A stretch of 64,000 bases of DNA from Candidatus Saccharimonadota bacterium (GCA_046350735.1 JAXLZU010000001.1:140530-204529); one strand, 5' to 3'. Counted from the stretch's first letter, positions 7,076 to 47,824 are shown. The notes: generated from the letters alone by a model not told the origin. Numbers and translations are program-made.

Positions 7076-8566
7076 ATGAGACGCAATGTACAGATTATTC
7101 TATTTGCACTAGCCTTTATGGTTGGTATTATTTTGGCTGCCAACTTTTGGTTTCCTTTTTCTTGGTGGCTAGCGCTAGCTGGTTTGGTCTTTCTGTTAAC
7201 TGTGTTTATATTTAAATCAAAACTAGGATACATTGTAATTGTTGCTGCAGCTATGCTTTTAGGTATTGCTCGTTACGAGTTTTGGTATACTCATCAACCT
7301 GTCTCAGTAGACACATTAGCTGATCAGAAGGTAACAATTACCGGTGTCGTCAGTGGTGAGCCAAGTTGGGATCAATACCATATGTATGTCTTCTATATTG
7401 ATAATGTGCATGTTAACGGAGTAGGTTATGCGGGTCTTGTTCGAGCAAAAAGTGTTAGCGGACAAGTGCACGAAGGTCAGATGGTGCAAGTGCGTGGCAA
7501 AGCAAGATCGAGTCTGGGCAAAGCTAGCATACTAATAAGTTATGCTGATGTTGAGATAATCTCACGAGCTCAGCCGTTTATTGTTGTTGCAAAAGAAACT
7601 TTTCTGAATGGATTAAATACTACATTAAGTCACGATTCAGCGGCTTTTGTGGCTGGTACACTTATTGGCTCTCGCTCGGCACTGCCAAAAGCACTACAAG
7701 ATTTACTATCGGCAGTAGGTCTTTCTCATGTTATAGCTGTTTCTGGCTATAATCTAACCATTCTAGTTGCTCTGCTTGCTATGCTGCTTGGCAAGAAATG
7801 GCGATGGGGTGGCCTAATTATTTCACTTTGGGTAATTTTGGGGTTTGTGATAATCTCTGGTGCAAATGCCGCAATTGTAAGAGCAGGAATAATGAGCACA
7901 ATATTTTTGGTGGCCAACTTTTATGGTAAGCGTGTTAACTTGGTGGTATGTATGGCGTTAACGGGTCTGGGAATGGTAGTAATAAATCCTGCCAATCTAC
8001 TAAGCGATATTGGCTGGCAACTTTCTTTTGCTTCACTTTTTGGTATTGCTACCCTTGGGCCAAAGATTGGCCGACTTTTGCCAAAACGCCCTGCCTGGCT
8101 GAATGAGATTTTGTCGGTAACTCTATCAGCTCAGTTAGCTACTGCCGGTATTATTGCGTATAATTTTGGCACTCTTAGCCTGATTGCACCAATAGTAAAT
8201 TGTATTGTAATGCCATTGGTTCCGATAATAATGGCTTATGGAGCGCTAGTGGCGTTCTTTGGAATGATCTTACCAAATTTAGGTGGAATTATTGCCCGTC
8301 CATTAGATGCTTCAGTGGTAATACTATTTGATTTTCTAAAATTTATGCAGCATTTTAAATGGGCAAGCGTGCAAATATCGTCTCTGAGTATTGTGGTGGT
8401 TTGCTTGTATTATGCCGTATTATCTTTTTGGGTAATTATGGCCCGCAAAACAGATTCGAAAGATTTACCAACAGATATAGATCGTGCTACAATAACCAAT
8501 ATTGTTGACTCAGCAAATAAGCCAGTATTTTCTAAAAAAGGAGCACAAAATGTCAGGCCACAGTAA
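7076..8566 (+). CDS. comEC: ComEC/Rec2-family DNA internalisation channel protein
   Basis: 496 aa, polytopic. 'LSAVGLSHVIAVSGYNLTILVALL' matches the ComEC competence-domain motif. Confidence 0.75.
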   Translation: MRRNVQIILFALAFMVGIILAANFWFPFSWWLALAGLVFLLTVFIFKSKLGYIVIVAAAMLLGIARYEFWYTHQPVSVDTLADQKVTITGVVSGEPSWDQYHMYVFYIDNVHVNGVGYAGLVRAKSVSGQVHEGQMVQVRGKARSSLGKASILISYADVEIISRAQPFIVVAKETFLNGLNTTLSHDSAAFVAGTLIGSRSALPKALQDLLSAVGLSHVIAVSGYNLTILVALLAMLLGKKWRWGGLIISLWVILGFVIISGANAAIVRAGIMSTIFLVANFYGKRVNLVVCMALTGLGMVVINPANLLSDIGWQLSFASLFGIATLGPKIGRLLPKRPAWLNEILSVTLSAQLATAGIIAYNFGTLSLIAPIVNCIVMPLVPIIMAYGALVAFFGMILPNLGGIIARPLDASVVILFDFLKFMQHFKWASVQISSLSIVVVCLYYAVLSFWVIMARKTDSKDLPTDIDRATITNIVDSANKPVFSKKGAQNVRPQ

Positions 8567-12929: not shown

Positions 12930-13343
12930 TCAGTTGGCGCTTGTTACTTCGTAAACGTTGGTGGTACCAGACTTAATATCTTTGTCGTTACCATTTTCTA
13001 AATTTGCTCGCAAAATATAAGAGTTGGGTGGATTACCAACAGTAATATATACATAATTCTGTTTTGTCTTCGGGTCTGTGGGAAGAGTAGTGAGGTAAGG
13101 TACGGTACCTTGTGTAAGTACATTTAAGTTGGCCGGATAGGCATTGTTGTCATTATAATAACTCTCTAAGCTAGCCTTTATTTTTCGAAGGTCAGATTTG
13201 CGTTGACTGTCTCTTGCGCGAGCTGGCCCAGACAAGAGGCTCGGCACAATTAAAACTGCCAAGATACCAACAATAACAATAACAATTAATAATTCTATTA
13301 GTGTAAAACCTTGTTGATCGCGCAGCCGCGAGAATATCTGCAT
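12930..13343 (-). CDS. Type IV pilin / pseudopilin (class III signal peptide)
   Basis: 'MQIFSRLRDQQGFTLIELLIVIVIVGILAVL' is the prepilin-peptidase motif G|FTLIE. Strong RBS (complement of 'cctcct') immediately upstream. Confidence 0.85.
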   Translation of the reverse strand: MQIFSRLRDQQGFTLIELLIVIVIVGILAVLIVPSLLSGPARARDSQRKSDLRKIKASLESYYNDNNAYPANLNVLTQGTVPYLTTLPTDPKTKQNYVYITVGNPPNSYILRANLENGNDKDIKSGTTNVYEVTSAN

Positions 13344-22299: not shown

Positions 22300-22911
22300 A
22301 TGCATTCTAAAAAGTCGAAACGTATTAACCATCAATCAAAAAAACGTACTAGTACTTCAGTAATACTGATTATTATTGCTGGTGTGCTTTTGGGTGCAGG
22401 AATTTACATATTACTGCTATTGCTAACACCCAAACTTAGCAGAAATTCAGCCAAAGAATTTCAGAAAACCCAAGAGCAGTTACAAGTATCAAATAAAAAT
22501 TTTCTTACTATTCCAAGTGCAAGTATTGCGGCAGAAATATCAGAAGGCGATGTGAATGTCCTAGATAAAGGTGTAGTCTGGCACCGATTGCCAGCGGTCG
22601 GTAATCCAGAAAAAGGCGGAAATACTATCCTTACTGGTCATAGCTTTGTTTGGGGATATACTCCAAAGCAAATTAAAGAGCAATCAATTTTTTATAATCT
22701 AAATGAAGTTAAGGTGGGCGATAAACTACAGGTGCGCTGGAACAATACAACCTACAATTACGAAGTGAGTGAAACGAAACAGGTTAAGCCGAACCAAATT
22801 GAGATTGAAAAACCCAGCAAAGAGGCCAAATTAACCATATATACCTGTACACTTGGCGGTAGTGCCGATGGTAGAGTAGTGGTAATTGCCAGGCCTACAG
22901 ATACGCACTAG
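22300..22911 (+). CDS. Sortase (class E-like transpeptidase)
   Basis: N-terminal TM anchor. His 'ILTGHS', Cys 'LTIYTCTLGG' (TLxTC) and Arg 'RVVVIARP' catalytic motifs. Confidence 0.85.
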   Translation: MHSKKSKRINHQSKKRTSTSVILIIIAGVLLGAGIYILLLLLTPKLSRNSAKEFQKTQEQLQVSNKNFLTIPSASIAAEISEGDVNVLDKGVVWHRLPAVGNPEKGGNTILTGHSFVWGYTPKQIKEQSIFYNLNEVKVGDKLQVRWNNTTYNYEVSETKQVKPNQIEIEKPSKEAKLTIYTCTLGGSADGRVVVIARPTDTH

Positions 22912-22948: not shown

Positions 22949-24787
22949 ATGAGAAGATTACAAATCTTTGGTTTGATGCTGATAGCAGCAGTATTGTGTG
23001 TATTTTTGTTTAGTAATAAAGCTCATGCCGCCACGTTTACTGTTACTGACAACGGAGATGCTTCTGCCGTAGACCCTTCAGTTAGCTGTGATACTGCCGG
23101 AAGTGTATGTACGCTTCGTTCTGCTATTGAGGCTGCCAATGCCCAGGCTGGGGCTGATAGTATCTCTTTTAATATTCCAGGTTCTGGTGTACATACAATT
23201 ACACCTGGTTCAGCATACCCCAATATTACTGATGAAGTTACAATAGATGGTTCGACCCAACCAGGTGCACAATGCGGCACATTAGTACCAGCAAATCTAC
23301 CACAATCTAGCAATACGCCACACACTCTACTTATTGAAGTAAACGGCTCGAATATTGTGGGTAGCATCTTAACCATTTCTACTGCTTCAGCAAATAACTC
23401 GATAGTAAAAGGCTTGGTACTAAACCATGCAGTATCTGGTAATGCTATTGTAGTAAATGGCGCAAATAACTCAACAATAGAATGCAATTATCTAGGTACC
23501 AACACCAATGGTTCGGCTGCTGCAGGAAATTATGCTGCTGGGGTATCAGTAAGTAATGTACCAACAATAACTATTCAAAATAATTTAATCTCCGGCTCTT
23601 CATCGGGTAATGGCATAGATATTAGTTCTGATGGTAGTGTAGGTTCTGGGTTAATACAAAATAATCTAATCGGAACAGATTCTTCTGGTATTAATGGTCT
23701 TAGCAATAGCTATACGGGTGTAAATATGTTCAACACAAATGGTTGGGGTGTAAAACATAATGTTGTTTCGGGTAATAATACTATTGGAATCAATATTAGT
23801 ACATCTTTTTCTGTGACGGTCACGGGCAATTTTGTAGGAGTAAATTTAAATGGCTCTCCATTAGGAAATAATAGTGACGGTTTGGTATTTTTTAGCTCTT
23901 CTAATTTTGTTATTGGTGGTAATACTGCTACCCTACGCAATGTACTATCTGCAAATCAAGGAGATGGGCTACATATTTATAATAACTGCCAAGGAGATAC
24001 TGCTTCGGCAAACTCTACGATACAAGGTAACTATATAGGAACCACTGCATCTGGTTTGCCTCAGGCGGGGTATGGCAACCAAGGTGCTGGGATAGAAGTG
24101 AACGAATATCAGGGTAGCTGTGGAAGCGTATATCGTCATCAAATAGGGGGTGACGGTTCTGGTGAATCAAATATTATCGCCGGTAACACTAATCAGGGAA
24201 TACTAGTGCATCAAGACAGCAGTCATGACGTATTTAGTATAAGTTCTATAGGTAATAGTATTTATGCCAATGGTCAGTTTGGTATAGACTTAGCTGCTGA
24301 TACAGGAGGTGATGGTATTGCAGATGTTGATCTAGGGCCAAATCTACTCAACAATTTTCTCATGACGTATGGCGCTACTAATGCTAATTATTACATTAAT
24401 CGACCAGTAATTAATTCAACTTCATACACTGGCAATCAGCTAACGGTTAATTACAGTTTGCAAGCTCCTGGTATTACCGATAACTTACCATATATACAGG
24501 CATCTAACCTTGTGGGATTTCGCCTTGACTTCTATCTAAATGATGCCGGACAAGATGGAGCATATTCTGGCTATTCTCAAGGCAAGACACATCTTGGATC
24601 CTTTATAGTTAACGGCCCTGAAAATAATGCAAATCATACCTTTACCAGTCCAGTTACACTTAAGGATGGACAGACAGTTACGGCAACAACTACTGTTTTA
24701 TGGCAGATAATTCCAAACCCAGGCACTAATTGCCAAGGTGATATTTGGGGTGTTGGTGTACCATATACTACAACTTGTAATCAATAA
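22949..24787 (+). CDS. Secreted right-handed beta-helix (pectin-lyase-fold / NosD-like repeat) surface protein, paralog 1
   Basis: Signal peptide 'MRRLQIFGLMLIAAVLCVFLFSNKAHA'. Repeated 'NN.I.GN...GI' beta-helix-type repeats. Paralogous over its full length to 25140..26987. Confidence 0.7.
   Translation: MRRLQIFGLMLIAAVLCVFLFSNKAHAATFTVTDNGDASAVDPSVSCDTAGSVCTLRSAIEAANAQAGADSISFNIPGSGVHTITPGSAYPNITDEVTIDGSTQPGAQCGTLVPANLPQSSNTPHTLLIEVNGSNIVGSILTISTASANNSIVKGLVLNHAVSGNAIVVNGANNSTIECNYLGTNTNGSAAAGNYAAGVSVSNVPTITIQNNLISGSSSGNGIDISSDGSVGSGLIQNNLIGTDSSGINGLSNSYTGVNMFNTNGWGVKHNVVSGNNTIGINISTSFSVTVTGNFVGVNLNGSPLGNNSDGLVFFSSSNFVIGGNTATLRNVLSANQGDGLHIYNNCQGDTASANSTIQGNYIGTTASGLPQAGYGNQGAGIEVNEYQGSCGSVYRHQIGGDGSGESNIIAGNTNQGILVHQDSSHDVFSISSIGNSIYANGQFGIDLAADTGGDGIADVDLGPNLLNNFLMTYGATNANYYINRPVINSTSYTGNQLTVNYSLQAPGITDNLPYIQASNLVGFRLDFYLNDAGQDGAYSGYSQGKTHLGSFIVNGPENNANHTFTSPVTLKDGQTVTATTTVLWQIIPNPGTNCQGDIWGVGVPYTTTCNQ
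23023..23125 (+). repeat. ~103-bp perfect direct repeat shared by the 5' ends of the two beta-helix paralog genes (second copy at 25214-25316)
   Basis: 'ctcatgccgccacgtttactgttactgacaacggagatgcttctgccgtagaccc...cgttctgc' is identical in both copies. Similarity continues beyond this at lower identity. Confidence 0.85.
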
Positions 24788-25139: not shown

Positions 25140-26987
25140 ATGAAAAAATTTTCTACACTCTGCCTTAGCCTAATACTAGCGTTACTCTGCGTACTAATTT
25201 TTTCTACCAAAGCTCATGCCGCCACGTTTACTGTTACTGACAACGGAGATGCTTCTGCCGTAGACCCTTCAGTTAGCTGTGATACTGCCGGAAGTGTATG
25301 TACGCTTCGTTCTGCCATTGAGGCTGCTAATGCCCAGGCTGGGGCAGACACAATAAGCTTTAATATTAGCGGACCTGGAGAACATACAATTAGTCCAGCA
25401 ACTGCTCTGCCTGATATTACTGATGAAGTTACAATAGATGGTTCGACCCAACCAGGAGCGCAGTGCGGTACGTTAGTACCAGTAAATCTACCCGCAACCA
25501 ATACACCCCATGTTCTTAACGTCGTAATTAATGGTAATGCTCTTGGTGCTGCTAATACATTATTATTTGATACCGGTTCAGATAATTCTGTAGTTAAGGG
25601 TCTGGTATTAAATGGAAATACTGGCAATACAGCATTGCAAATTAACTCTACCGTAGGAGGGGTATTAATTGAGTGTAACTACTTAGGTACCAATGCGGCT
25701 GGCGACACAATAGTTACAAATTCTAACCTCAATATAGGTGCCTTTATTAATTCTGGTACCACCACTATTCAAAACAACTTGATTTCTGGATCGAGTGTGG
25801 GAGTGTTGGCTAACTCAGCAAATATAACGAATAACCTTATAGGCACGAATGCTAACGGTACTGGTGCATTAGGTAATAGTGCACAAGGTATATTAATTAA
25901 CTATAGCTCGCAGAATCTGGCAATTTCGCATAATATTATATCTGGCAACAATCTAGGTATTTATATCACATTAAATGGTCCAAATAATAGCATTCATGGA
26001 AATTATATCGGTGTAGGTGTAACAGGGAACCCACTTGGTAATACCACTGGCGGCATTACCGCATTTGGTGCAAATGATTTTTCAATAGGGGGTGTTTCGG
26101 TTACCGACAGAAATATAATTTCTGCTAATGGAGGTGATGGTATACATATATATAGTAATTGTAATACCGGCCAATCTGTTGGTTCGACTACATACGGCAA
26201 CTATATTGGCACAAACACCTCTGGTAATGTTCAAAACGGATTTGGAAATAACGGAGCTGGGATAGAGGTAAACGAATATCAGGGGAGTTGTGAGTCTGTT
26301 TATAATCATGTTATCGGCGGTGATTTAGCTGGTCAACCAAATACTATCGCAGGTAATACTAATCAAGGAGTGCTTGTACATCAGGACCTGGACCATGACG
26401 TATTTAGCGTAGTAATATTAGGTAATAGTATCTATGGTAATGGCCAGTTTGGTATTGATTTGGCATCTGATTCGAGTGGTTTTGATGGAGTAGCTGATAC
26501 CGATCTTGGACCCAATCCACTTAACCAACTCGCAATGACGTATCCAACCACAGTTGCTAATTATTATCTAAATACTGCTACAATAAATTCAGCCACCTAC
26601 ACTGGGAACGAAATTACAGTCAACTATAGTTTTCTAGCAAATCCTGTACAAAATAGTAATGATGGGGTAAGTTTGCTTACTAGTGATTTAGTTGGCTATC
26701 GTTTAGATTTCTACATTAATAATGGAGGGCAAGATGGCGCATATGCTGGCTATGGTCAAGGTAAGATCCACTTGGGCAGTTTTATTGTAAGTGGTGCTGC
26801 CAGTGGGGCTACACATACTTTCACAAGCCCAATACCTCTCACGAATGGTCAAAATATCACTGTAACATCAACAGCACTTTGGACTAATAATCCAGGTCCT
26901 GCTATTACTCCTCGTTCTTGTGACGGTGAAACCCAGCGCGTCGGCAATGGTCCAAAGTATGATTACCAAGGCTCTTGCCCTAACTAG
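25140..26987 (+). CDS. Secreted right-handed beta-helix surface protein, paralog 2
   Basis: Signal peptide. The first ~60 residues after the signal are identical to paralog 1. Later conserved blocks include 'GAGIEVNEYQGSCxSVY.H.IGGD' and 'GNSIYxNGQFGIDLA'. Confidence 0.7.
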   Translation: MKKFSTLCLSLILALLCVLIFSTKAHAATFTVTDNGDASAVDPSVSCDTAGSVCTLRSAIEAANAQAGADTISFNISGPGEHTISPATALPDITDEVTIDGSTQPGAQCGTLVPVNLPATNTPHVLNVVINGNALGAANTLLFDTGSDNSVVKGLVLNGNTGNTALQINSTVGGVLIECNYLGTNAAGDTIVTNSNLNIGAFINSGTTTIQNNLISGSSVGVLANSANITNNLIGTNANGTGALGNSAQGILINYSSQNLAISHNIISGNNLGIYITLNGPNNSIHGNYIGVGVTGNPLGNTTGGITAFGANDFSIGGVSVTDRNIISANGGDGIHIYSNCNTGQSVGSTTYGNYIGTNTSGNVQNGFGNNGAGIEVNEYQGSCESVYNHVIGGDLAGQPNTIAGNTNQGVLVHQDLDHDVFSVVILGNSIYGNGQFGIDLASDSSGFDGVADTDLGPNPLNQLAMTYPTTVANYYLNTATINSATYTGNEITVNYSFLANPVQNSNDGVSLLTSDLVGYRLDFYINNGGQDGAYAGYGQGKIHLGSFIVSGAASGATHTFTSPIPLTNGQNITVTSTALWTNNPGPAITPRSCDGETQRVGNGPKYDYQGSCPN

Positions 26988-37732: not shown

Positions 37733-37831
37733 AGAAATTATGCGCCGAACCAACTCAGCCGAACTAGCCCGTCAAATGGCATCGTTCACAAAAATACACA
37801 GTCGGTTTTGGTGATATACTAAAGATCAACT

Positions 37832-38038
37832 ATGAAGGACGATTACAAGATAAACGAAGAAGACATCCAAAAGGTTATAAAGTACCTTGAGTTTCACGAT
37901 CCTAAAAATGCCGACCGTGAATACGCCATTGAATTTATCCAGGCAATGCAGATTGAGGGCAACGAAATAGCTCGAACTGACGAGAAGCTAGCCGAGGCAA
38001 TCCGTGACTTTACTCGCAAGAAAGAAGAGGACAGCTAA
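37832..38038 (+). CDS. Small hypothetical acidic protein
   Basis: 68-aa ORF. No motif recognised. Confidence 0.3.
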   Translation: MKDDYKINEEDIQKVIKYLEFHDPKNADREYAIEFIQAMQIEGNEIARTDEKLAEAIRDFTRKKEEDS

Positions 38039-38256
38039 GCCCTGTTAGGGAAGATATCCGAAGCCTTAACACCTAACGCAGCAAATATCTCATACAGCGT
38101 TTCAACCGAGGCGATAGCTACCCCTTGCTCTAAGGTAGCGTAGTAATTGGTAGTCAGACCAACCTTTTCGGCAACATCTTTTTGGGTGTAATGCCGGGCT
38201 TTACGAGCCTTTTGCAGGTTCGCGCCAATTGTTTTCCTGAGTTTTGCTTCGTTCAT
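38035..38256 (-). CDS. XRE-family helix-turn-helix transcriptional regulator
   Basis: 'KARHYTQKDVAEKVGLTTNYYATLEQG' is the HTH_3 signature; 73 aa. Confidence 0.75.
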   Translation of the reverse strand: MNEAKLRKTIGANLQKARKARHYTQKDVAEKVGLTTNYYATLEQGVAIASVETLYEIFAALGVKASDIFPNRA

Positions 38257-38294
38257 ATGTACTATCCTAATTCTACACCAGACTGTAGCAGATA

Positions 38295-40946
38295 TTGCCA
38301 GTCAAGTCCACCTCTGTTAGTATGAAGTCAGTCAGATCGTTGTACAAGGGAGCCACCATGACAAATGAATCTGGTGGGCAAACAATGGAGCTAGTGGAGT
38401 TCATTCAAACAGCCCTGCCGCTGCTAGGGGTTACGGTAGTCTGCGCTGTCCTGCTCTTCTTCCTTATCTTTACTGTTCTCCGACTTATTAACTACCGCCG
38501 AAAGCTGAAGCAAGAGAGTGTGCTGCTTGAGATAACACCGCCAGCCTTTCAAGATAAAGTACCGATTGCCACCGCCCAACTCTTCTCAGTCTTTCATGGC
38601 TTGCTTAAGCACCGTTCGCTAACCGACGTGCTACTCAGATATGCACCAAGTTTCTCACTCGAGATTGTCTCCTCCAAAGACAAGGGCATTCGCTATCTAG
38701 TCCGTACGGATACAGACAGCGCCGATATCATCCGCCATAACGTCCAAGCCTACATTACTGATGCAAAAGTCACGGAAGTTGACGATTATCTTCACGAGGC
38801 AGCCCACAGCTCAATCCAAGTGTTCAAACAGGCCAACCACTTTGCCCACCCGATTGATACCAGCAGCACCATTAGCGAACATGATCCAGTTGCCTATCTC
38901 ACGAATGCCATGACCAAGCTTGATGACGATGAATTGATGAGCTTCCAGATGGTAGTCACACCAGCTGCTATTGCCGAAGCCGCTAAGATTGATCACAAAA
39001 TACGGCGGGGCTACTGGTCTGGTTCGAGCCTTGAAAAATCCTTTTCAGGTAAAAATATCCTGAAGATTATCTGGGTTATCGTTAAGTTTCCAATCGTCTT
39101 TACCTGGGGTTTACTCTACGCCTTTTTTACTCATGATCTGTATGATTCACCGAAGTCCAGATACGACTCACCCCAGGCCTCACACGTACCGCCCGCTGAA
39201 CAAGAGCTGCTTGATGAAATGCACGTCAAGCTAAGCCAGGATTTGTTTTACGCTGATCTCAGACTACTGGTGCTGGTCGGTAGCAAACAGCACCTCAAAG
39301 AACGCGTCCGAACATTTGCCGGCTCACTCGCAACCTACGCCACACCGAATTGGCAGATGCTAAAACAATCCCGTAACTACCTGTTTCGATATGGCTATAT
39401 ATTCCGGCATTTTATCTTTAGAAACCGTCTGCCGTCACTGATTCACTCCAACTCCAGCATACTCAGCACCGATGAGCTTGGCGCACTCTTTCACTTCCCA
39501 CACACCAGAGCTGCCAGGACGGATAATGTATCTAAATCACTCAGTAAGACCTTGCCAGCACCAACCTCACTGAAAGACAAGAACAACAAACTAAGCATTG
39601 TCCTCGGACAGAACAAGCACCAAGGACAGATTACGCCGTTTGGCCTGACTGAAGCTGAACGAGAGCGTCATATCTTCATGATTGGCGGCACGGGCAATGG
39701 TAAAACCACCATGTTGCAGTATGGCATCGTCCAGGACATTAGAAGCGGTAAAGGCGTAGCCGTGATCGACCCGCATGGCGATATGGCACAAAACTTACTG
39801 CGCTACATACCGAAAAACCGTATAAAAGATGTCATTTACTTCAACCCTGATGACATTGACCATCCGCTGGCGATGAACTTGCTTGAAATACCAAGAGGGC
39901 TGAGAGGCAGCGCACTGGAGCGAGAAAAAGACCGCGTTACTGAATCGGTTATCTCAGTGCTGCGAAAAATATTCTCTGATGACGATACCGGCGGCCATAG
40001 AATTGAATACGTACTCAGAAATGCCATTCAGACAGCGCTAACCACTGAAGACCCAACTATTTTTACTATATTTGAACTGCTCACAAACGACACCTATCGC
40101 AAGAAAATAACCAATGACTTACCGGCTGGAACGCTCAAAAACTTCTGGCAAAACGAGCTTGGTAAAGCCGGAGCCATGCAACGGGTAAAAATGAGCCACG
40201 GTGTAACCAGTAAGATTGGTCGTTTTGAGTTTTCGCCCGCTACCAAGCGAGTGATGGGGCGACCAACTTCCACTTTAGATTTTGACGACCTGCTCAGCTC
40301 TGGCAAAATCCTCATCTGTAATTTCTCCAAAGGTAACTTAGGTGAAGATACCTCAGCTTTATTTGGCACGGCGGTACTGGCTAAATTACAGACCGCCGCG
40401 CTCAGAAGAGCCAGAATCGACCAACGTGAACGCACCCCGTTTTATCTCTATGTTGATGAGTTTCAGAACTTTGCGACTATGCCGTTTGTACAGATGTTAT
40501 CTGAAGCTCGGAAGTACAAACTGTTTCTGACCATGGCTGAGCAGTCGACGACGCAACAGGACGAGCAGCGGTTAGTAAATATCATCTTAGCTAATGTTGG
40601 TACAGTAATCACCTTTAGAACTGGCAGCCCGGTAGATGAGCAATTAGTGCTACCGTTGTTTAGGCCGTATATTGAGCCGGGCGAAATAGCCAACCTGCCA
40701 AGCTTTAATTTTTATGCACGGCTGTCTGCCATACGGTCGCAGGAGCCGTTATCTGGAGAGACGCTGTTGCTCAACGATGATGGTGATCAAGCGATTGCCA
40801 AACAAGCTGTACGGTCTTCTCAGAAATTGTATGCTTACAAATATAAGGAAGAGGCAAAGAAGAGCAAGACAGACAAAGCCAAGCCCGATGAAGCGCAAGA
40901 TGCCAAAAACACCGACTCAAAAGAGGATGAGGCAATAGATGTGTAG
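38295..40946 (+). CDS. Type IV secretion coupling-protein-like ATPase (VirD4/TraG/TraD family) with an acidic C-terminal tail
   Basis: N-terminal TM helices. Walker A 'IGGTGNGKTTM', Walker B-like 'LYVDEFQNFAT'. K/D/E-rich C-terminal tail as in TraD. 883 aa. The exact start is uncertain. Confidence 0.55.
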   Translation: MPVKSTSVSMKSVRSLYKGATMTNESGGQTMELVEFIQTALPLLGVTVVCAVLLFFLIFTVLRLINYRRKLKQESVLLEITPPAFQDKVPIATAQLFSVFHGLLKHRSLTDVLLRYAPSFSLEIVSSKDKGIRYLVRTDTDSADIIRHNVQAYITDAKVTEVDDYLHEAAHSSIQVFKQANHFAHPIDTSSTISEHDPVAYLTNAMTKLDDDELMSFQMVVTPAAIAEAAKIDHKIRRGYWSGSSLEKSFSGKNILKIIWVIVKFPIVFTWGLLYAFFTHDLYDSPKSRYDSPQASHVPPAEQELLDEMHVKLSQDLFYADLRLLVLVGSKQHLKERVRTFAGSLATYATPNWQMLKQSRNYLFRYGYIFRHFIFRNRLPSLIHSNSSILSTDELGALFHFPHTRAARTDNVSKSLSKTLPAPTSLKDKNNKLSIVLGQNKHQGQITPFGLTEAERERHIFMIGGTGNGKTTMLQYGIVQDIRSGKGVAVIDPHGDMAQNLLRYIPKNRIKDVIYFNPDDIDHPLAMNLLEIPRGLRGSALEREKDRVTESVISVLRKIFSDDDTGGHRIEYVLRNAIQTALTTEDPTIFTIFELLTNDTYRKKITNDLPAGTLKNFWQNELGKAGAMQRVKMSHGVTSKIGRFEFSPATKRVMGRPTSTLDFDDLLSSGKILICNFSKGNLGEDTSALFGTAVLAKLQTAALRRARIDQRERTPFYLYVDEFQNFATMPFVQMLSEARKYKLFLTMAEQSTTQQDEQRLVNIILANVGTVITFRTGSPVDEQLVLPLFRPYIEPGEIANLPSFNFYARLSAIRSQEPLSGETLLLNDDGDQAIAKQAVRSSQKLYAYKYKEEAKKSKTDKAKPDEAQDAKNTDSKEDEAIDV

Positions 40947-40975
40947 GGGCCATGGAGCTACTGTAACCTAGCCTC

Positions 40976-41154
40976 TAAGAGTCAGCGAACAGACAACCCG
41001 TTGTTGCGATCGTTGTTGTTGTCCGGGTTCACGTTGTCGGCATTGAAGTTCGCGTTGAACGCGTTGTTGGCATTGTCTGGATTGGCCGAAGCCGACCACA
41101 AGTTGCCGTTGTCACCCTGGTTGTTGAAGCCCTCCCACCAGACACCAGCGAACG
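40976..41154 (-). repeat. DGR template repeat (TR), 179 bp, intergenic
   Basis: Aligns with no gaps to 42569-42747 at a constant offset of +1593. About 30 mismatches, every one at a plus-strand T in this copy, which is an A on the minus (sense) strand. Lies 3' of the RT gene on the same strand. Confidence 0.85.
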
Positions 41155-41360
41155 AAAAGGACCCAAACCAGGCACCCGCTTGTCAATACTGCTCGTTATA
41201 CTACGCCCAGCGTACCAAGCGTAGGGAGGCCTTGACGGCGCTGCCCCTATAGAACTAGCTATGAACAAGTCAAAGCTAGTGAGTATTGTCTCTTAGATAT
41301 GCTTATGTGCCAGGCCGATCATCGGGTAGTGAGCAAAAAGCCGTCAAGCGCCACCCGCCC

Positions 41361-42479
41361 CTAGGCCAGGCAAAGCATAGCTTCTATTGTACCCCCCCGA
41401 ACTTTTACACCACTCTTGATACCATCCAAAAGTTTGCGATGCCTATAATGCTTCACCAACCCCCGATACGATGCCTCGGTTGACTCGAGGCAATCTTGCC
41501 GAGATAATGCGGCTAGTAGGTTACGCTTTAAACGCCTGCCAGGATGTATACGAAATGGATATACCACCGCACCCAGAAATGCAACTCCCTTGCTATATTC
41601 TTGCAGGTGTCGCTTATGAGGATGGAGCGTCAACCCAAGTTGCTGGCCCGCATAGTGCTCGATAGCGGCCAGTGCCCGAACGAGCTCCTCTTTTTTGAGA
41701 GAAACAATATAAAAATCATCAACGTACCGGCCATAATGTGCAAATCCGAGCTCAAGCGTCACAAAACGATCGAGTTGGTCCAGATACATATTGCTTAGTA
41801 GCTGTGAAGTGAGATTGCCGATAGCAATGCCCCGGCCTTTTGGCTGGTGAAACAAACTCTTGCTCGGCGGCAAGCCCTTCCAGGCGCTCCGCGGACAACT
41901 GAACTCCACGTTCTTCAGGGGATCGTTGAAAATAATGACCTTCCATAAAAACTTACACAGTTGGTAGGCGTAGCCTTTATCGGGAAATTGCCTATCCAGC
42001 CCCCACATTGCTCGCACGTATAGTTTTTTGCGATCTAAGCTCATGAAGTACCCCAGAAGATCGAGCTGTAGTATATATGCTGGCCGCGTATAATTACGGC
42101 TTTCTGAACGGATATGATGGTCAAGGCGACGGATACCATACAGCGTACCTTTGCCCTTGCGGCAACTGTAGTTGTCTGCAATGAACCGCGCATCCCACCA
42201 TGTGTTGACTTGGTTGAATAAAAAGTGATGCACCACTCTATCCCGAAAGGCCGCAGCGAAGATCTCTCGTTTGACGGGTTTGTTCACGATAAAGGCTGTT
42301 GATGGCCGTGGTGTATAGGTTCGCGAATGAATTTCTCTGGCCAGTGCTGCAATCTCTGACCGAGCGACTTTGTCAAATGCTTCCACTTGTGGTTTTTTGG
42401 TTTTGCCGCGCCGCGCATCGAGGTAAGCCTTCTGCAGCTCTTTGGCAAGCCAAGCGTTGCGTTTTTGCGATGTGTCCAT
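41361..42479 (-). CDS. Diversity-generating retroelement reverse transcriptase
   Basis: RT motifs including 'YILQLDLLGYFMSL', 'GIAIGNLTSQLLSNMYLDQLD' (the DGR-type [I/L]GxxxSQ motif) and 'RYVDDFYIVS' (YxDD). 372 aa with no maturase or endonuclease domain. Confidence 0.85.
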   Translation of the reverse strand: MDTSQKRNAWLAKELQKAYLDARRGKTKKPQVEAFDKVARSEIAALAREIHSRTYTPRPSTAFIVNKPVKREIFAAAFRDRVVHHFLFNQVNTWWDARFIADNYSCRKGKGTLYGIRRLDHHIRSESRNYTRPAYILQLDLLGYFMSLDRKKLYVRAMWGLDRQFPDKGYAYQLCKFLWKVIIFNDPLKNVEFSCPRSAWKGLPPSKSLFHQPKGRGIAIGNLTSQLLSNMYLDQLDRFVTLELGFAHYGRYVDDFYIVSLKKEELVRALAAIEHYAGQQLGLTLHPHKRHLQEYSKGVAFLGAVVYPFRIHPGRRLKRNLLAALSRQDCLESTEASYRGLVKHYRHRKLLDGIKSGVKVRGGTIEAMLCLA

Positions 42480-42562
42480 AGGAGGTAATACACCCCAGTC
42501 GACTCAGCGGGCTCAGGCCTGGTCAGGCCCTCGCGCCTGCTTCGCTTTGTGGGGTGTATTGC

Positions 42563-43912
42563 TTAATGTAAGAGACAGCGAACAGACAACCCGCCGTCGC
42601 GATCGACGCCGCCGCCCGGGACCACGCTGCCGGCACTGAAGTCCGCGCCGAACGCGCTGCTGGCATCGACTGGAAAGGCCGAAGCCGACCACAAGTCGCC
42701 GTAGTCACCCTGGCCGTAGAAGCCCTCCCACCAGACACCAGCGAACGTGCCTTGAAACGGTCCTGGGTAATTCCACTGGGCAGGGCTGCTACCGAGTGCG
42801 GTATAGAGCGCTGCGAACTCACCGCCACTACCACCGGTTGGCAGCCGCCAATTGGCCGGACAAATGGAATAGGGGGCATTGCCAGAGCCTGCAGGCATAC
42901 TGGTTCTGGATTCCCCTGCAGTGGCCGCGCTCCAGTTGTAGAGATAACCGTAATTGGTTTCTCCTGCGCCGGTGTCGCCAGGGGCGGGGCCGTAGGCACC
43001 AGGGTTGTCGTAGTCGGCTGTGCCGGTGGTGACCACTTGTGGCAAGGTGAAGTTGCTGGCGATGTTGGTGTCTGCTGGGGTGAGTTCTAGGGTGCTGGTA
43101 GTACTACCGAGCTTGAGGTTGTTTAACATCCAGCAGTTGCCATCGGCCAGTTTAGCAACCTCATAGGTTTGGTTGTTCGCACGGGTGTCGGTGAGGGTCA
43201 GGATGGCGTCTTGGTTGCTACCGTTGTAGATAGTCATGTAGTTCTCGCAGTAGCTGGTGGTCATTTCTTGCATGGTGGTAGGGGTTGGAGGGAGAGGGGT
43301 CTCATTGTCGGTGGCACTGTAAGTGAGCTTGAGCTCTTTTTGGCCTGCGGTGACCGTACTATCTATGGTGAAGTCTAAGGTGACTTCGGTGGTGTCGTTG
43401 GATGACGCACTGTCGGTGGTCTTGAGCGTGAGAGCTGGAGCGCCAGGTTCGAGCGCGGTGCTGGTGGTAATGTTACCCCCTTTGAGCTTGATGGCGATAC
43501 CTGGTTCAGCTTCGGTGAGTGCTGCCGTGAGGCTGTAGCCAGTGGGGTTGGTGGTGCCGGTAGTGATGGCGGTTGTGGTAGTTGCAGTACCGCCACCTTC
43601 GGGAACCGTAACTGTCAGGGTATCTTGGTTGGCACCGAGGCTCAGTGTGGGAGCAGCAGAAACGCTTGAGAGGTTGAGGCCAAGGCCAATGGTGGCAACA
43701 GAGAGAAAGGCAAAGGTGGCAATGCTACGGAAGCTAAGCTTACGTAGTTTAGTGCGCACACGTGGCATTCGGGAAAACAAAAACAGGACGGCTACGGCAA
43801 TAAGACTGACGCCAATTGCGGTGTACAGGGTGGTGTTTGCGCCGGTGTTGGCGAGGTTACCCCCTGCTTCTCCGCCGATGACGATGTTGATGGTTTGGGT
43901 TATGGATTCCAT
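42563..43912 (-). CDS. DGR target (variable) protein: Thr-rich surface protein with a C-terminal FISUMP/C-type-lectin-fold domain containing the VR
   Basis: Signal-peptide-like 'FRSIATFAFLSVATIGLGLNLSSVSAAP' after a 48-aa N-terminal segment (an alternative start at 43768 is possible). T-rich repeats. C-terminal 'NYGYLYNWSAA...YSICPANWRLPTGGSGGEFAALYTAL...VRCLLH' is typical of the Fibrobacter-succinogenes-major-paralogous (C-type lectin) fold used by DGR targets. Confidence 0.8.
   Translation of the reverse strand: MESITQTINIVIGGEAGGNLANTGANTTLYTAIGVSLIAVAVLFLFSRMPRVRTKLRKLSFRSIATFAFLSVATIGLGLNLSSVSAAPTLSLGANQDTLTVTVPEGGGTATTTTAITTGTTNPTGYSLTAALTEAEPGIAIKLKGGNITTSTALEPGAPALTLKTTDSASSNDTTEVTLDFTIDSTVTAGQKELKLTYSATDNETPLPPTPTTMQEMTTSYCENYMTIYNGSNQDAILTLTDTRANNQTYEVAKLADGNCWMLNNLKLGSTTSTLELTPADTNIASNFTLPQVVTTGTADYDNPGAYGPAPGDTGAGETNYGYLYNWSAATAGESRTSMPAGSGNAPYSICPANWRLPTGGSGGEFAALYTALGSSPAQWNYPGPFQGTFAGVWWEGFYGQGDYGDLWSASAFPVDASSAFGADFSAGSVVPGGGVDRDGGLSVRCLLH
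42569..42747 (-). repeat. DGR variable repeat (VR) at the 3' end of the target gene
   Basis: Counterpart of the TR. Substitutions relative to the TR occur only at TR adenines (sense strand), mostly A to G with some A to T. Ends 6 bp before the target gene's stop codon. Confidence 0.85.
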
Positions 43913-44085
43913 GGTATTCTTTTTTCCTTTCTTTGGTTATAGCTGCTTTGTTATGGTTGGTTGATGAATGAATAGACTGCGGATAAAACCAAAACTAGCC
44001 GCTCAGGATAGAGACGGCTGTTGAGGGAGATAGGCTGAAGGTGTGACGTTGAACGGTAGCAGTGCGGTTAGCGCATGCGCTAACC

Positions 44086-44104
44086 GAGAGAGAGAGAGAG
44101 AGAG
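44086..44104. repeat. (GA)n dinucleotide tract (~9.5 units) flanked by two palindromes, upstream of the DGR target gene
   Basis: 'gagagagagagagagagag'. On its left is the 20-bp perfect palindrome 'ggttagcgcatgcgctaacc' (44066-44085). On its right is the hairpin 'tagattgcgc-taac-gcgcaatcta' (44105-44128). Confidence 0.8.
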
Positions 44105-44581
44105 TAGATTGCGCTAACGCGCAATCTAAACCACTGATAGTGCCGGTTTGATTATTCCCCTCTAATGTATACGTAGTTTTCATAGTTTTTGCTTCCACTC
44201 ACGGTAGTTTTGTGCATAGTATATGTGAGTACTATGCATATGCACAAAACTGCTTACGTATATTTTATCATACATGCTTATTGATACAAACGGTATCTTT
44301 TACTATCGATAAAAATAAGAAAAGGCGCCTCAGGTTCAATACAGTACCGTATACGCCTTTTACGGGCTGTGTTATAGGGTAGCTCATTATATTGCTAAGG
44401 CTTTTTGAGCCAGCTAAATTCAATATTGACATAAACACTATTGTTTGATAGTATATTTATAAGACCTTCGGCAAGTGGTTTTTAGGCCACCCCAGCGGAA
44501 GGCCTGAGTGAAAAGCTTCGCGTAGTTTATACACTACACTTGCGAGGTTTTTCTTTTTGTTTGAAATCTGAAAGTCTGGAT

Positions 44582-44992
44582 TTAGTGTGGCGGGAACACG
44601 GACACGAAGTACTTGTTATCTGTCCTGTTGTCTTCTTTAACTTGTACATAAAACAAATCGCCGTCTTTGGTCTGGCCTGCGAAACGATGCACCAGTTCAT
44701 TACGCCCGTTCGGGTTCGGCTTTGTGACAGGCTCTGCTGTACTATGGCGAAGCAGCTCAATGGCAGCTGCGTAGTATTTGATACGTCGCTTGCGATCATA
44801 CTGTGGTTTTTGATGCAGGTGATCCCAGAAAAGGTTGATGAATATCTTGCTATTTTTGAAATACGCACTTCGTATGTAGGGGTTACGCTTTGAACGAGCA
44901 GCAATGGAGTTATGCAATTTGCGAGCCTTGCGCTCCACGTCAGAGTACGAACGACCAGTGTATTTAACTGCTTTTGTTCGGTAGGCTTTCAT
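44582..44992 (-). CDS. Hypothetical basic protein
   Basis: 136-aa ORF whose start overlaps the upstream gene's stop. No motif recognised. Confidence 0.35.
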   Translation of the reverse strand: MKAYRTKAVKYTGRSYSDVERKARKLHNSIAARSKRNPYIRSAYFKNSKIFINLFWDHLHQKPQYDRKRRIKYYAAAIELLRHSTAEPVTKPNPNGRNELVHRFAGQTKDGDLFYVQVKEDNRTDNKYFVSVFPPH

Positions 44993-45768
44993 ATTGCCAG
45001 TATAACACCTCGCTCGAGAGCAGGAGGACTTATGTCTTGGCTGCCAATACCCTCTAGCGTAGTGGCCGTTATAGTGAGCTCCACGTAGCTGCTATCCAGC
45101 TCTTTCGTGGCTATGCTTTCTACTTTCTTCTTCAGGTTATTTGATTCGCACACAAATAGGATGGTGGGGTGAGGTTGATTCGGTTTATGCTTTTGCCATA
45201 TGCCAAGTTCTGCATACGTAATGTAGCGTTTCACGGCTTTCCTGAACGTCCAGAAGCTGGCGGTATCTTCCAGGCAGTCCATGAAATAGTGCTGGTTGGT
45301 CTGGGCGTCTATGATCTGAGCATCAGGTTTGGTTTTGGGGGCGTAATTTTTATTCATCAGCTCGGTTTTGCTAAAGAACTTGAAGCGCCCAGGATAAGTA
45401 TTTTTGAGATCGATAAAGACTCTAAAAACATTAAGTCTGTGCGCGATCTGGCTCGGCGTTGCCCGCTTATCATGGTAGATACTCCTGAGTGCTGATTCTT
45501 GTACGTACGATTGCTGCCGTAAGTATCTGACACCCTTGGGCAGTAAATAATAGGCAGCTGGCTGGCCTTTAATTCTGTAGCTACTGTCATAATTCATACC
45601 GATATATTCTTGTTCTACCAGTATCTTTAGTCTATTGGATGTAACTCGTAGGTGCTTAGCGTTTTGATTTTCAGCTAAGAGTGAGGCAGTTACGAAGCGA
45701 AACTTATAGAGTGTATTTAAGATAGTAAGTTGATGGTTGTTTAATGGTCGTCGGTATTTTGGTTGCAC
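44989..45768 (-). CDS. Putative replication-relaxation-family / plasmid-type HTH protein
   Basis: N-terminal 'HQLTILNTLYKFRFVTASLLAENQNAKHLRVTSNRLKILVEQEYI' resembles the replication-relaxation winged-helix pattern. This is a weak call. Confidence 0.3.
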   Translation of the reverse strand: MQPKYRRPLNNHQLTILNTLYKFRFVTASLLAENQNAKHLRVTSNRLKILVEQEYIGMNYDSSYRIKGQPAAYYLLPKGVRYLRQQSYVQESALRSIYHDKRATPSQIAHRLNVFRVFIDLKNTYPGRFKFFSKTELMNKNYAPKTKPDAQIIDAQTNQHYFMDCLEDTASFWTFRKAVKRYITYAELGIWQKHKPNQPHPTILFVCESNNLKKKVESIATKELDSSYVELTITATTLEGIGSQDISPPALERGVILAI

Positions 45769-45965
45769 GTTTAGTATTACTCCCTATACGTAGTATAGGT
45801 AATTATATAACAAATGATTATAAATATAACAGATATAAATGCTGTATATAGATAGCCTAACGATGAGATATCCACAGTTTTACTAAATAAGCCGTGTTTT
45901 ATGTTTGAACTATCTCTATTATCCATAGTATACTATAGATATAATCAATAGTTTCCGAGGGTATT

Positions 45966-46097
45966 ATGGCAAATAATAGATGGTTAGCCAAAGCGAAAAA
46001 CAAGCTCGACACAAACGAGCAGGAACGTCTTGAGCTGCTGGCGGATATCCTGTTGGAAATAGCCTTGGAGGAGGGTCAGGATGAGGCAGCAAGCTAA
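45966..46097 (+). CDS. Small acidic ORF (43 aa) overlapping the recombinase start; candidate excisionase / recombination directionality factor
   Basis: 'MANNRWLAKAKNKLDTNEQERLELLADILLEIALEEGQDEAAS'. 'gaggg' RBS-like sequence upstream. Found by manual translation and absent from the track because it is shorter than 60 aa. Confidence 0.25.
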   Translation: MANNRWLAKAKNKLDTNEQERLELLADILLEIALEEGQDEAAS

Positions 46098-47790
46098 CCG
46101 TAATGCCGTTGCCGCCATCCGCGTTTCGACCACTAAACAGGGTCGTGACGGTGACTCGCCCGAAGCTCAAAAAGAGCAAATAGAGCGCTTCGCGCAGAAT
46201 AAAGGTATTACCATCAAGAAGTTCTTTGTCTTCATGGAATCAGCCAGCAAAGAGCAACAGCCGATGCAGGAAGCCATAGATTACTGTAAGAACAAGGAAA
46301 ACAACGTAGATTTGTTTATTATTAAGTCGATAGATCGATTCACCCGTGGCGGGTCACTATCGTATGACCTGCTCAAAACCCAGCTGGATCGCTGTGGTAT
46401 TACACTTATCGATACCTACGGCGTTATTAGCCAGGAACAAGTTAATACGTTGGAGCATCTTGGACATAGCTACAAATGGAGCACCTACTCACCGAGCCGT
46501 AAGTCTGAGATGCTGGAAGCCGAGCGATCCAAAGATGAGGTCAGAGACATTTTAAGCCGTGTGATCGGTGCCGAAATCCGCTATACCAAAATGGGCTACT
46601 ACATGCGTAGACCACCCTATGGGTTTATGAGCGAAAAGGTAGAAACCCAGCACGGTAAGCGCACCATCTTGAAGCCACACACCGAAGAGTCCAAGTTCAT
46701 TATTAAGCTATTTGAACTGCGAGCCAGCCGACAATTTACCGATAAAGAAATAGCTACTAAGCTGAACGACATGGGCTACCGCGGACGGACACAGTACCGC
46801 CGCTCAAAAACAGACCGCAACCGTATTATTGGCAAGACCGAAGGTACGCTGCTAGATGATAAGAAAGTCTGGAGAATCGTCAGAAACCCCATCTATACCG
46901 GCATTATTGTTGAAAAGTGGACGAAATATCAGCCAGTCAAAGCTATGTTTGATGGGCTAGTATCAGTTGAGCTGTTTAACCGAGCCAACAAAGGTAAGCG
47001 CACTATTATTGAAATGCCCGGTAACAAAATCGCTATTACTGACAATGTCGCTACCAGAAACGCCACCCCGCAAGGTACACGCAACAATGACTTTGCTTTT
47101 AAGCACTACGTGATGTGCCCACAGTGCAATAAACCACTATCCGGCAGTACCTCACGCGGTAAAACTGGAAAATACTACTCGTACTACCACTGTGACAAAC
47201 GCGGCCATAAATTCAGAGTCAGTAAAGAAGATTTGGAAACTAAAATATACAGCTTCATTGATGGCATGGCGTTCTCCGAGGAGCGTATCGACAAAGTGTT
47301 TGCCATTGTTCGAAAGAAATACGAGCAGCACATCGCCACCTACGAGGCTCAGACAACAGCACTAAACGGACAGAGTACCACGCTTGAAGCCAAGGCTAGA
47401 GAACTCACCAGAAGCTTTGCAACCATCGCCCCATCAGCCCAGAAATACGTTAACGAGGAGCTGGAGGATATAGATATACAAATTAAGCGTTTAGCGCTGG
47501 AAAGGACGAATATGGAGAGCAAGAAACCCATGGATATAGATAAAGTTTTGAGCAGAATCAAGAAGTTTTCCGAAAACATTGGTCAGGCTATTGCTCAACA
47601 GAGTAACGACATCAAAAAAGCCCAGCTTTTCGGGCTATTATTCAAGACTTTGCCAACCTACAATGATTTAACTTTCCGAAACCGAAAAACACCCCTTTTT
47701 ACAGGGGTGCATCCGGTCTTCAATCTTCTCGCCACCGATAATCTACATTTGGTGACCCCAAGGGGAATCGAACCCCTGTTGCCAGGATGA
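46081..47790 (+). CDS. Large serine recombinase (integrase)
   Basis: Catalytic 'AAIRVSTTKQGRDGDSPEAQ' with 'KSIDRFTRG'. Recombinase domain ('PPYGF', 'WRIVRNPIYTG'). Zinc ribbon 'CPQCNKPL...YYHCDKRGH' and a coiled-coil C-terminus. The ORF runs 41 bp into the antisense strand of tRNA-Glu. Confidence 0.85.
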   Translation: MRQQANRNAVAAIRVSTTKQGRDGDSPEAQKEQIERFAQNKGITIKKFFVFMESASKEQQPMQEAIDYCKNKENNVDLFIIKSIDRFTRGGSLSYDLLKTQLDRCGITLIDTYGVISQEQVNTLEHLGHSYKWSTYSPSRKSEMLEAERSKDEVRDILSRVIGAEIRYTKMGYYMRRPPYGFMSEKVETQHGKRTILKPHTEESKFIIKLFELRASRQFTDKEIATKLNDMGYRGRTQYRRSKTDRNRIIGKTEGTLLDDKKVWRIVRNPIYTGIIVEKWTKYQPVKAMFDGLVSVELFNRANKGKRTIIEMPGNKIAITDNVATRNATPQGTRNNDFAFKHYVMCPQCNKPLSGSTSRGKTGKYYSYYHCDKRGHKFRVSKEDLETKIYSFIDGMAFSEERIDKVFAIVRKKYEQHIATYEAQTTALNGQSTTLEAKARELTRSFATIAPSAQKYVNEELEDIDIQIKRLALERTNMESKKPMDIDKVLSRIKKFSENIGQAIAQQSNDIKKAQLFGLLFKTLPTYNDLTFRNRKTPLFTGVHPVFNLLATDNLHLVTPRGIEPLLPG

Positions 47791-47824
47791 AAACCTGGTG
47801 TCCTAACCGCTAGACGATGGGGCC
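47750..47824 (-). tRNA. tRNA-Glu (anticodon UUC)
   Basis: Reverse complement folds: acceptor ggcccca/tggggtc (one G-U pair), D-arm 'gtctagcggttaggac', anticodon stem ccagg/cctgg with loop 'tTTTCat', T-arm agggg-ttcgatt-cccct, CCA. Confidence 0.8.

Follow-up and report, generated by a model that had tools for sequence, protein, structure and literature searches.

Diversity-generating retroelements (DGRs) are, to our knowledge, the only natural system of targeted protein hypermutation in prokaryotes. In the DGR of Bordetella phage BPP-1, arranged mtd-avd-TR-brt, a template repeat (TR) is paired with a variable repeat (VR) that differs from it specifically at adenines and lies at the 3' end of a tail-fibre gene encoding a ligand-binding protein of C-type-lectin fold. 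A survey of such elements found no accessory gene in 29% of them, and one of its classes, Architecture A2, has the order target-reverse transcriptase (RT)-TR without avd, HRDC, MSL or CH1 (Wu et al., 2018; PMC5758913). DGRs are enriched in the Candidate Phyla Radiation (CPR)/Patescibacteria (PMC8144416, PMC10221324). The locus described here lies in a stretch of 64,000 nucleotides (nt) from a Candidatus Saccharimonadota bacterium (GCA_046350735.1 JAXLZU010000001.1:140530-204529; below, 'the window', with positions counted from its first nucleotide). On the minus strand of positions 40976-43912, a target gene ending in the VR is followed by an RT gene and a TR, an order that the preliminary description of this DNA had proposed and that the map of open reading frames (ORFs) upholds. 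We put at about 90% the probability that this is a complete, apparently competent DGR of the RT-TR type that lacks accessory genes, located in a Candidatus Saccharibacteria chromosome. The evidence comes from the repeat pair and its adenine specificity, the class of the RT, the fold of the target, conserved cis-acting elements and diversification among sister copies. The order and the missing accessory genes are those of Architecture A2, from which the locus does not differ in principle; two structured elements, termed R1 and R2, fall outside that classification. The parts of the element are as follows.

40976..41154, minus strand: TR, non-coding, delimited by repeat finder and base count, identical in all eight contigs with an identical RT
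41184..41351, minus strand: structured RNA R2, about 170 nt, between the RT stop codon and the TR, with three helices and covariation
41361..42479, minus strand: DGR reverse transcriptase, 372 amino acids (aa), with IGNLTSQ and YVDD and a Pfam RVT_1 match
42485..42561, minus strand: irregular 77-nt hairpin R1, directly downstream of the VR and stop codon, with no counterpart behind the TR; candidate target-site recognition hairpin or cruciform
42563..43912, minus strand: DGR target gene, 449 aa, with an N-terminal LAxTG/transmembrane segment, a beta-sandwich and a C-terminal FISUMP domain carrying the VR
42569..42593, minus strand: invariant 3' end of the VR resembling an initiation of mutagenic homing (IMH) sequence, reading ...CGGGTTGTCTGTTCGCTGTCTCTTA on the minus strand; the T at 42575 is a fixed difference from the TR
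42569..42747, minus strand: VR, codons about 390-448 of the 449-codon target

A repeat finder returned one two-copy family, 40976-41154 and 42569-42747, aligned without gaps over 179 nt at an offset of 1593 and with 83% identity. Similarity between the two copies breaks off sharply at either end, and no third copy was found in the 64-kb window. The preliminary description had counted about 30 mismatches over 179 bp at an offset of +1593, all at a minus-strand A of the intergenic copy; base-by-base comparison gave exactly 30, every one at a plus-strand T (minus-strand A) of that copy, and no mismatch at any other base of the TR. On the plus strand the changes from TR to VR are 22 T>C and eight T>A, which on the coding strand are 22 A>G, eight A>T and no A>C. 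The VR departs from the TR at 30 of the latter's 46 adenines, and the chance that 30 mismatches would all hit 46 T positions among 179 is 9e-23 (hypergeometric). The VR had been described as ending 6 bp before the stop. This holds when counted to the last base of the ORF, while the repeat itself ends 3 bp before the stop codon, with a single His codon between. Read in the frame of the 449-aa ORF, the TR has 15 AAC and three AAT codons, and of its 46 adenines 43 fall on the first or second base of a codon, a layout that is textbook DGR template design. In the VR none of the 15 AAC codons is retained, all 21 codon changes in its mutagenised part are non-synonymous, and the TR is itself non-coding, with an in-frame TGA at 40982-40984.

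A pattern in which 22 of 30 changes are A>G transitions might also arise without reverse transcription, if a strand-specific mutational bias of the deamination type had acted after ordinary duplication or gene conversion. Such an origin is exceedingly improbable, given the eight A>T transversions and the confinement of the changes to one copy, at codon positions 1 and 2 of AAC and AAT codons, while the unchanged copy is non-coding and adjoins a DGR-type RT. Flanking DNA carries no A-biased change, with 0 differences across the surrounding island among the contigs compared, and sister elements keep their TR identical while their VRs differ.

The RT was compared with solved structures by phmmer, in which the best chain was 8ub7_A (E=8e-27), followed at a distance by a group II RT (1.5e-4) and a retron RT (2.6e-3). 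The matched stretch of 8ub7_A is 100% identical over 102 aa to brt of phage BPP-1 (tblastn), and the IGNLTSQ motif of the RT aligned with IGSLTSQ of the BPP-1 enzyme (bRT). The ORF at 41361..42479, its IGNLTSQ and YVDD motifs and its assignment to the DGR type, all proposed earlier, hold, and bRT, which shares the I/LGxxxSQ motif, is its closest solved homologue. Phage homologues reach up to 33-40% identity. Judged by these comparisons, the RT belongs to the DGR class and is closer to bRT than to group II, retron or Abi RTs. That it might instead be the RT of another retroelement (group II intron, retron or Abi/DRT), with the repeat an unrelated biased duplication, is very improbable. NCBIfam does return matches to such families, as expected for any RT, but the bit scores lie far under the family cut-offs: 87 against 300 for group II RT/maturase (TIGR04416), 36 against 200 for Drt3a, 33 against 235 for retron St85, 28 against 390 for Drt2 and 22 against 450 for Drt4. 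No group II intron or retron RNA was matched by Rfam in the window at the gathering score or in 40850-42650 at E<=1, and the adenine-only pattern (P about 1e-22) recurs in relatives.

The 449-aa ORF proposed as the target, with a FISUMP/C-type-lectin C-terminus carrying the VR, stood up in both its extent and its fold class. From the N-terminus, the protein comprises an LAxTG motif with a transmembrane (TM) and basic segment resembling a sorting signal, a second hydrophobic, signal-like segment, a beta-sandwich (about residues 89-202) that matched donor-strand pilins, and an FGE-type C-type-lectin/FISUMP domain. The VR is presented by this last fold at the C-terminus. The FGE-type C-type-lectin fold is used by DGR variable proteins and is common to SUMF2, OvoA and SenA. 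No meaningful sequence relative of the target was found in the PDB, and the protein is regarded here as a putative adhesin.

Among described targets, it belongs to the category 'd' class, with DUF1566/Fib_succ_major signals and CLec2 (PMC5758913). LdtA of Legionella pneumophila (category 'd', CLec2) shows the same weak, mixed DUF1566/Fib_succ_major signal, a C-terminal VR and surface display, but is a Tat-exported outer-membrane lipoprotein whose DGR has avd, whereas the present target has an LAxTG/TM N-terminus, a sortase encoded in the same window and no avd. TvpA of Treponema denticola (PDB 2y3c; 14% identity) is likewise a lipoprotein, without a pilin-like middle domain or N-terminal LAxTG segment. 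The host lineage is that of the CPR/Patescibacteria DGRs; targets of CPR clade 2 usually lack recognisable TM or conserved domains (Roux et al., 2021; PMC8144416), whereas this one has TM segments and a FISUMP-like domain.

The N-terminus of the target is unusual in its own right. Residues 1-48 (43770-43912, minus strand) contain a conserved beta-strand, TQTINIVIG, followed by LAxTG, a hydrophobic helix and a basic patch. Together these make up a full sorting signal of the sortase type, but at the N- instead of the C-terminus, and a second, hydrophobic, signal-peptide-like segment (...SVSA/AP) comes after it. T23 never varies among 69 homologues and G24 is kept in more than 90% of them, and there is a weak NCBIfam match to 'LAXTG motif-containing small protein'. 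In an AF2 model, residues 2-12 form a strand, and one possibility is that a wall-anchored N-terminal peptide could hold the secreted body through strand complementation. A sortase gene (PF04203, E=4e-21) is located at 22300-22911 on the plus strand of the window, so that the host could process the LAxTG signal. Behind it lie genes for two secreted paralogues of 612 and 615 aa (22949-24787 and 25140-26987, both plus strand), which are near-identical in their N-terminal regions and have neither a Pfam match nor an LPXTG motif. The chromosomal part of the window also encodes a type IV pilin-like protein (12930-13343, minus strand; N_methyl, T2SSG and ComP_DUS matches), in agreement with reports of type IV pili in Saccharibacteria.

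Scanning one genome per species gave 80 loci related to this DGR (L numbers below), almost all of them from Saccharibacteria/Patescibacteria. A protein identical to the RT is on record under Candidatus Saccharibacteria, encoded on a 798-kb contig of a metagenome-assembled genome (MAG). The likely episymbiotic host cell of the preliminary description is, by this record and the scan, Candidatus Saccharibacteria. Twenty-two Saccharibacteria/Patescibacteria loci form a close clade with the same element type and RTs 72-83% identical to that of the window. In 15 relatives of this identity range (one, L012, is cut by a contig end), the VR ends a homologous target gene, the RT follows, and the TR lies about 170-290 nt past the RT match. 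Each has 16-32 TR/VR mismatches, 81-100% of them at TR adenines. Several MAGs hold two or three such loci. Over the window and its relatives, A>C makes up 16 of 368 changes (about 4%) and is, as in BPP-1, the rarest outcome; this agrees in direction with bRT, for which dG is the least frequently misincorporated base (PMC7826257).

Three sister MAGs (L009, L010 and L011) provide evidence of activity. Their TRs are identical, while their VRs differ pairwise at 20-25 sites, 19-24 of which are at TR adenines, and a 5.8-kb alignment of L010 with L011 contains about 24 mismatches, essentially all in the VR. Thus, elements of this type diversify in nature. A more distant Saccharibacteria/Nanosyncoccus clade with RTs 45-56% identical (L035 6166-6962, L052 6176-7169, L054 6106-6819 and L075 6152-6868) has a template copy directly after the RT, without R1 and R2. 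There the mismatches fall at T of the RT strand, which indicates that the TR/VR pair is read from the strand opposite to the RT.

The 3' boundary of the repeat and the DNA beyond it provide further parallels with BPP-1, in which the IMH sequence at the VR end is distinct from its TR counterpart (IMH*) and a hairpin follows the VR and not the TR. In the window, an A of the TR at 40982 faces a T of the VR at 42575, so that TGA in the TR becomes TGT (Cys) in the VR. This adenine-versus-T difference is present in 16 of 16 clade copies (the window and the 15 relatives), and the TR of L066 reads TCA. In L066 and L021, non-adenine differences between TR and VR occur only in the last ~10 nt of the repeat. 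Since these adjoining differences favour a segment that is not transferred, the TGA/TGT difference appears, on the sequences compared, better read as an IMH/IMH*-type 3' boundary than as a random mutagenic event. Less favoured is the alternative of an ordinary mutagenised adenine held as T by selection for Cys, a point on which the frequency of TGT alone is not decisive because A>C is ~4% in the clade. Here IMH and IMH* would differ by a single nucleotide, which sets the locus apart from BPP-1.

Hairpin R1, whose position is given as nine nt past the stop codon, has a minimum free energy of -41.5 kcal/mol (z=-4.2). Its alignment has 26 pairs, of which 15 show compensatory changes; in the apical stem, GGC[C/G]U-GACC-A[G/C]GCC, for example, a C-G pair changes to G-C. 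Searched with a covariance model, the window and all 22 loci of the close clade each yielded a single strong copy on the same strand (57-99 bits), and the 58 more distant loci yielded none; 11 of the 22 had taken no part in building the model. In L015 the hairpin remains 32 nt after the VR although a two-ORF module separates it from the RT. This insertion (L015 4340-4908) encodes proteins of 103 and 86 aa that look RelB/RelE-like by eye, and the island of L015 is otherwise syntenic. Rfam had no match for R1 or R2 at either of the settings given above. In BPP-1, a hairpin or cruciform after the VR is needed for efficient homing; it has an 8-bp stem and a GRNA loop, in contrast to the irregular 77-nt stem and GACC loop seen here (PMC3240598). 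By this analogy, R1 is a candidate functional counterpart of the BPP-1 hairpin.

The spacer between RT and TR contains the second structured element, R2, with helices 41348-41340/41239-41231, 41280-41274/41260-41254 and 41224-41215/41210-41201. Both sides have changed in 17 pairs, compared with 7.7 in shuffles and 3-5 in slid controls, and a covariance model located a single copy behind the RT in the window and likewise in 19 loci of the close clade. The structure came from comparative analysis only, since the full 466 nt from RT to TR, when folded alone, gave no significant result (z=-1.1). L021 has an additional, weaker match (69 bits) at 7826-7969, ~1.3 kb downstream of its TR, which may represent a remnant or another template unit. 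Downstream of the TR, nothing is conserved.

Two segments of R2 are complementary to the 3' end of the TR. One, UAAGAGACA (41295-41287), covaries from U-A to C-G in L021 and L024; the other, GAGCAGU (41194-41188), shows wobble-compatible changes only. A40982 is unpaired in either register. In BPP-1, a spacer (Sp) 3' of the TR forms a 7-bp TR-Sp duplex that puts the priming adenosine, Sp A56, beside the first templated base (PMC6182149). The R2 spacer, which is 5' and not 3' of the TR, may take the role of Sp through base-pairing to the 3' end of the TR on either side of the unpaired A40982, as the analogy and, to a slight degree, the covariation suggest.

Putting these parts together by analogy with BPP-1, a minus-strand transcript would span the RT gene, the structured spacer of ~170 nt and the TR. 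The enzyme would then reverse-transcribe the TR, misincorporating opposite template adenines, and the mutagenised cDNA would replace the VR in which the target gene ends at its 3' side, with homing guided by the invariant IMH-like 3' end and by the 77-nt hairpin that follows the VR and not the TR. As a result, up to ~25 codons (15 AAC, three AAT) in the ligand-binding face of the C-type-lectin domain of a surface protein would be rewritten, for a theoretical diversity of about 1e25 proteins. For this locus, cDNA synthesis, homing and independence of Avd are putative.

Several observations weigh against a complete and competent DGR of this kind. The Pfam and NCBIfam FISUMP scores of the target are slightly under the curated cut-offs, and a Foldseek comparison of the target with the PDB gave no significant match. 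Covariation in the spacer/TR pairing is slight, with one pair showing two compensatory events in one register and none in the other. The ORFs of the island and 10 other small ORFs of the window gave no Pfam match to Avd/23S_rRNA_IVP, and BPP-1 requires Avd. Eight further contigs, which come from several projects, encode exactly this RT; their TR is identical in 8 of 8, and the VR is identical to that of the window in 6 of 6 independent contigs spanning it, while the 90%-identity protein cluster of the target is a single sequence. Accordingly, there is no direct evidence of present diversification in this copy. The population variability of the VR expected in the preliminary description was therefore not borne out for this copy in these consensus assemblies, where minority variants stay hidden, although the sister copies L009-L011 do vary. 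The island around the DGR is also 100% identical among those contigs, which may share a very recent ancestor; this weakens the absence of VR variation. As for Avd, its absence does not disqualify the locus as a DGR, since the protein is found in about 74% of DGRs and is not universal.

It is conceivable, if somewhat unlikely, that the cassette is intact but quiescent or domesticated, its VR stemming from past homing and now fixed through repression, a missing host or accessory factor, or strong purifying selection in favour of a single successful VR. The invariant VR, the single-member target cluster and the missing Avd are in line with this, as is the below-average apparent activity of the Patescibacteria DGR clade noted by Roux and colleagues, for whom purifying selection can mask activity (PMC8144416). 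The VR and TR, however, have no non-adenine mismatch, and the RT, TR and cis-elements are intact, suggesting that, measured against the pace of mutation, homing last took place recently; the identity of the island across contigs leaves little time elapsed, and sister copies with the same parts diversify. In addition, L007, which has an identical RT, ends at window position 42607, 39 nt inside the VR, the type of break that heterogeneous VRs can cause. Another contig, L008, ends at 42507, 62 nt short of the VR. Both contigs are short and carry the identical RT, and their ends might reflect assembly breaks from VR heterogeneity. An IUPAC scan of JGI metagenome contigs (VR flank plus VR with N at the TR adenines) gave no match, even to the native allele, and is uninformative.

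A DGR in a chromosomal island of a cell, as opposed to a phage tail-fibre gene, is another departure from BPP-1, together with the absence of avd and the position of the TR downstream of the RT. The Legionella DGR, too, is reportedly carried on an integrated mobile element. The island and its other genes are as follows.

37802..47824, no strand: higher-GC island with the DGR, ~10 kb, delimited by GC content, Pfam matches, tRNA, a boundary of single-nucleotide differences and a conserved gene set
37832-38038, plus strand: hyp68, island gene
38035-38256, minus strand: XRE regulator, island gene (Pfam)
38295-40946, plus strand: homologue of the type IV secretion system (T4SS) coupling protein, TrwB/TraG-type (Pfam), convergent on the TR
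44582-44992, minus strand: orf136, no Pfam or PDB relative
44989-45768, minus strand: Replic_Relax (Pfam)
46081-47790, plus strand: large serine recombinase (Pfam), its 3' end overlapping tRNA-Glu
47750-47824, minus strand: tRNA-Glu (tRNA scan), right edge of the island

The GC content of the island is 0.42-0.55, compared with about 0.39 for the genome. All 38 sites at which L001 differs from the window lie at or before 37801 (1.6% over 2.4 kb), with none in 37802-47808, and this identity beside a divergent left flank points to recent horizontal spread or recombination among Saccharibacteria strains. The island gene set also flanks the DGR in L015, L017 and L013, and in part in others. This conservation, together with the multiple loci per MAG, marks the DGR as stable cargo of a family of small integrative, probably mobilisable islands. 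T4SS channel genes were not found in the island, which therefore looks mobilisable and not self-transmissible. Between its left edge and tRNA-Glu only a 10-mer was found as an att-type direct repeat, and a lack of att repeats is expected for serine recombinases. Overall, the island is an integrative, probably mobilisable element at tRNA-Glu that carries the DGR; neither an empty site nor an excised form of it was seen. Its orf136 was considered as a substitute for Avd and rejected, as it has no Pfam or PDB relative and co-occurs with Replic_Relax and not with the RT.

Upstream of the target gene, the stretch 44065-44251 contains a perfect 22-bp palindrome (44065-44086), a (GA)9.5 microsatellite (44086-44104), a hairpin with 10-bp arms (44105-44128) and inverted arms of 13 nt (44206-44218/44239-44251). 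It is partly conserved in L009-L011, and the (GA) length is invariant among the contigs compared. Possible roles for these symmetry elements are those of an operator, an oriT or a slipped-strand switch. A scan for promoter and terminator consensus sequences gave nothing above shuffles.

A wider interpretation, which we consider doubtful, joins these features into an Avd-independent DGR lineage with a template RNA unlike that of BPP-1, carried as island cargo that diversifies a surface protein with a pilin-like domain and an unusual N-terminal LAxTG signal, a protein that could serve transfer of the island. The structured ~170-nt RNA 5' of the TR, in place of an Sp 3' of it, may then pair with the TR 3' end around the unpaired A40982, making that A a candidate priming or boundary nucleotide, while the 77-nt hairpin may mark the target site. 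By analogy with the shufflon-varied PilV of plasmid R64, the varied protein could recognise recipient or host cells for transfer and not only serve the cell that carries it.

The kind of DGR, its architecture and its class of target are already catalogued (PMC5758913, PMC8144416). What is added here are the clade-specific RNA and DNA elements, a compact system without Avd, the setting in a mobile island and the odd N-terminal LAxTG signal. DGRs are thought to help tiny episymbionts, Saccharibacteria among them, to fit their attachment proteins to their hosts, a picture that this locus leaves unchanged. The locus is a clean example, delimited in full and with every cis-element mapped, and it bears on how cDNA is made in the roughly one-quarter of DGRs without Avd, for which a compact RT, a ~170-nt RNA and the TR are candidates, and on target-site recognition, for which the candidate is the covariation-supported 77-nt hairpin. 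Finally, the identity of the island amid ~1.6% flank divergence shows how diversifiers spread within Saccharibacteria.

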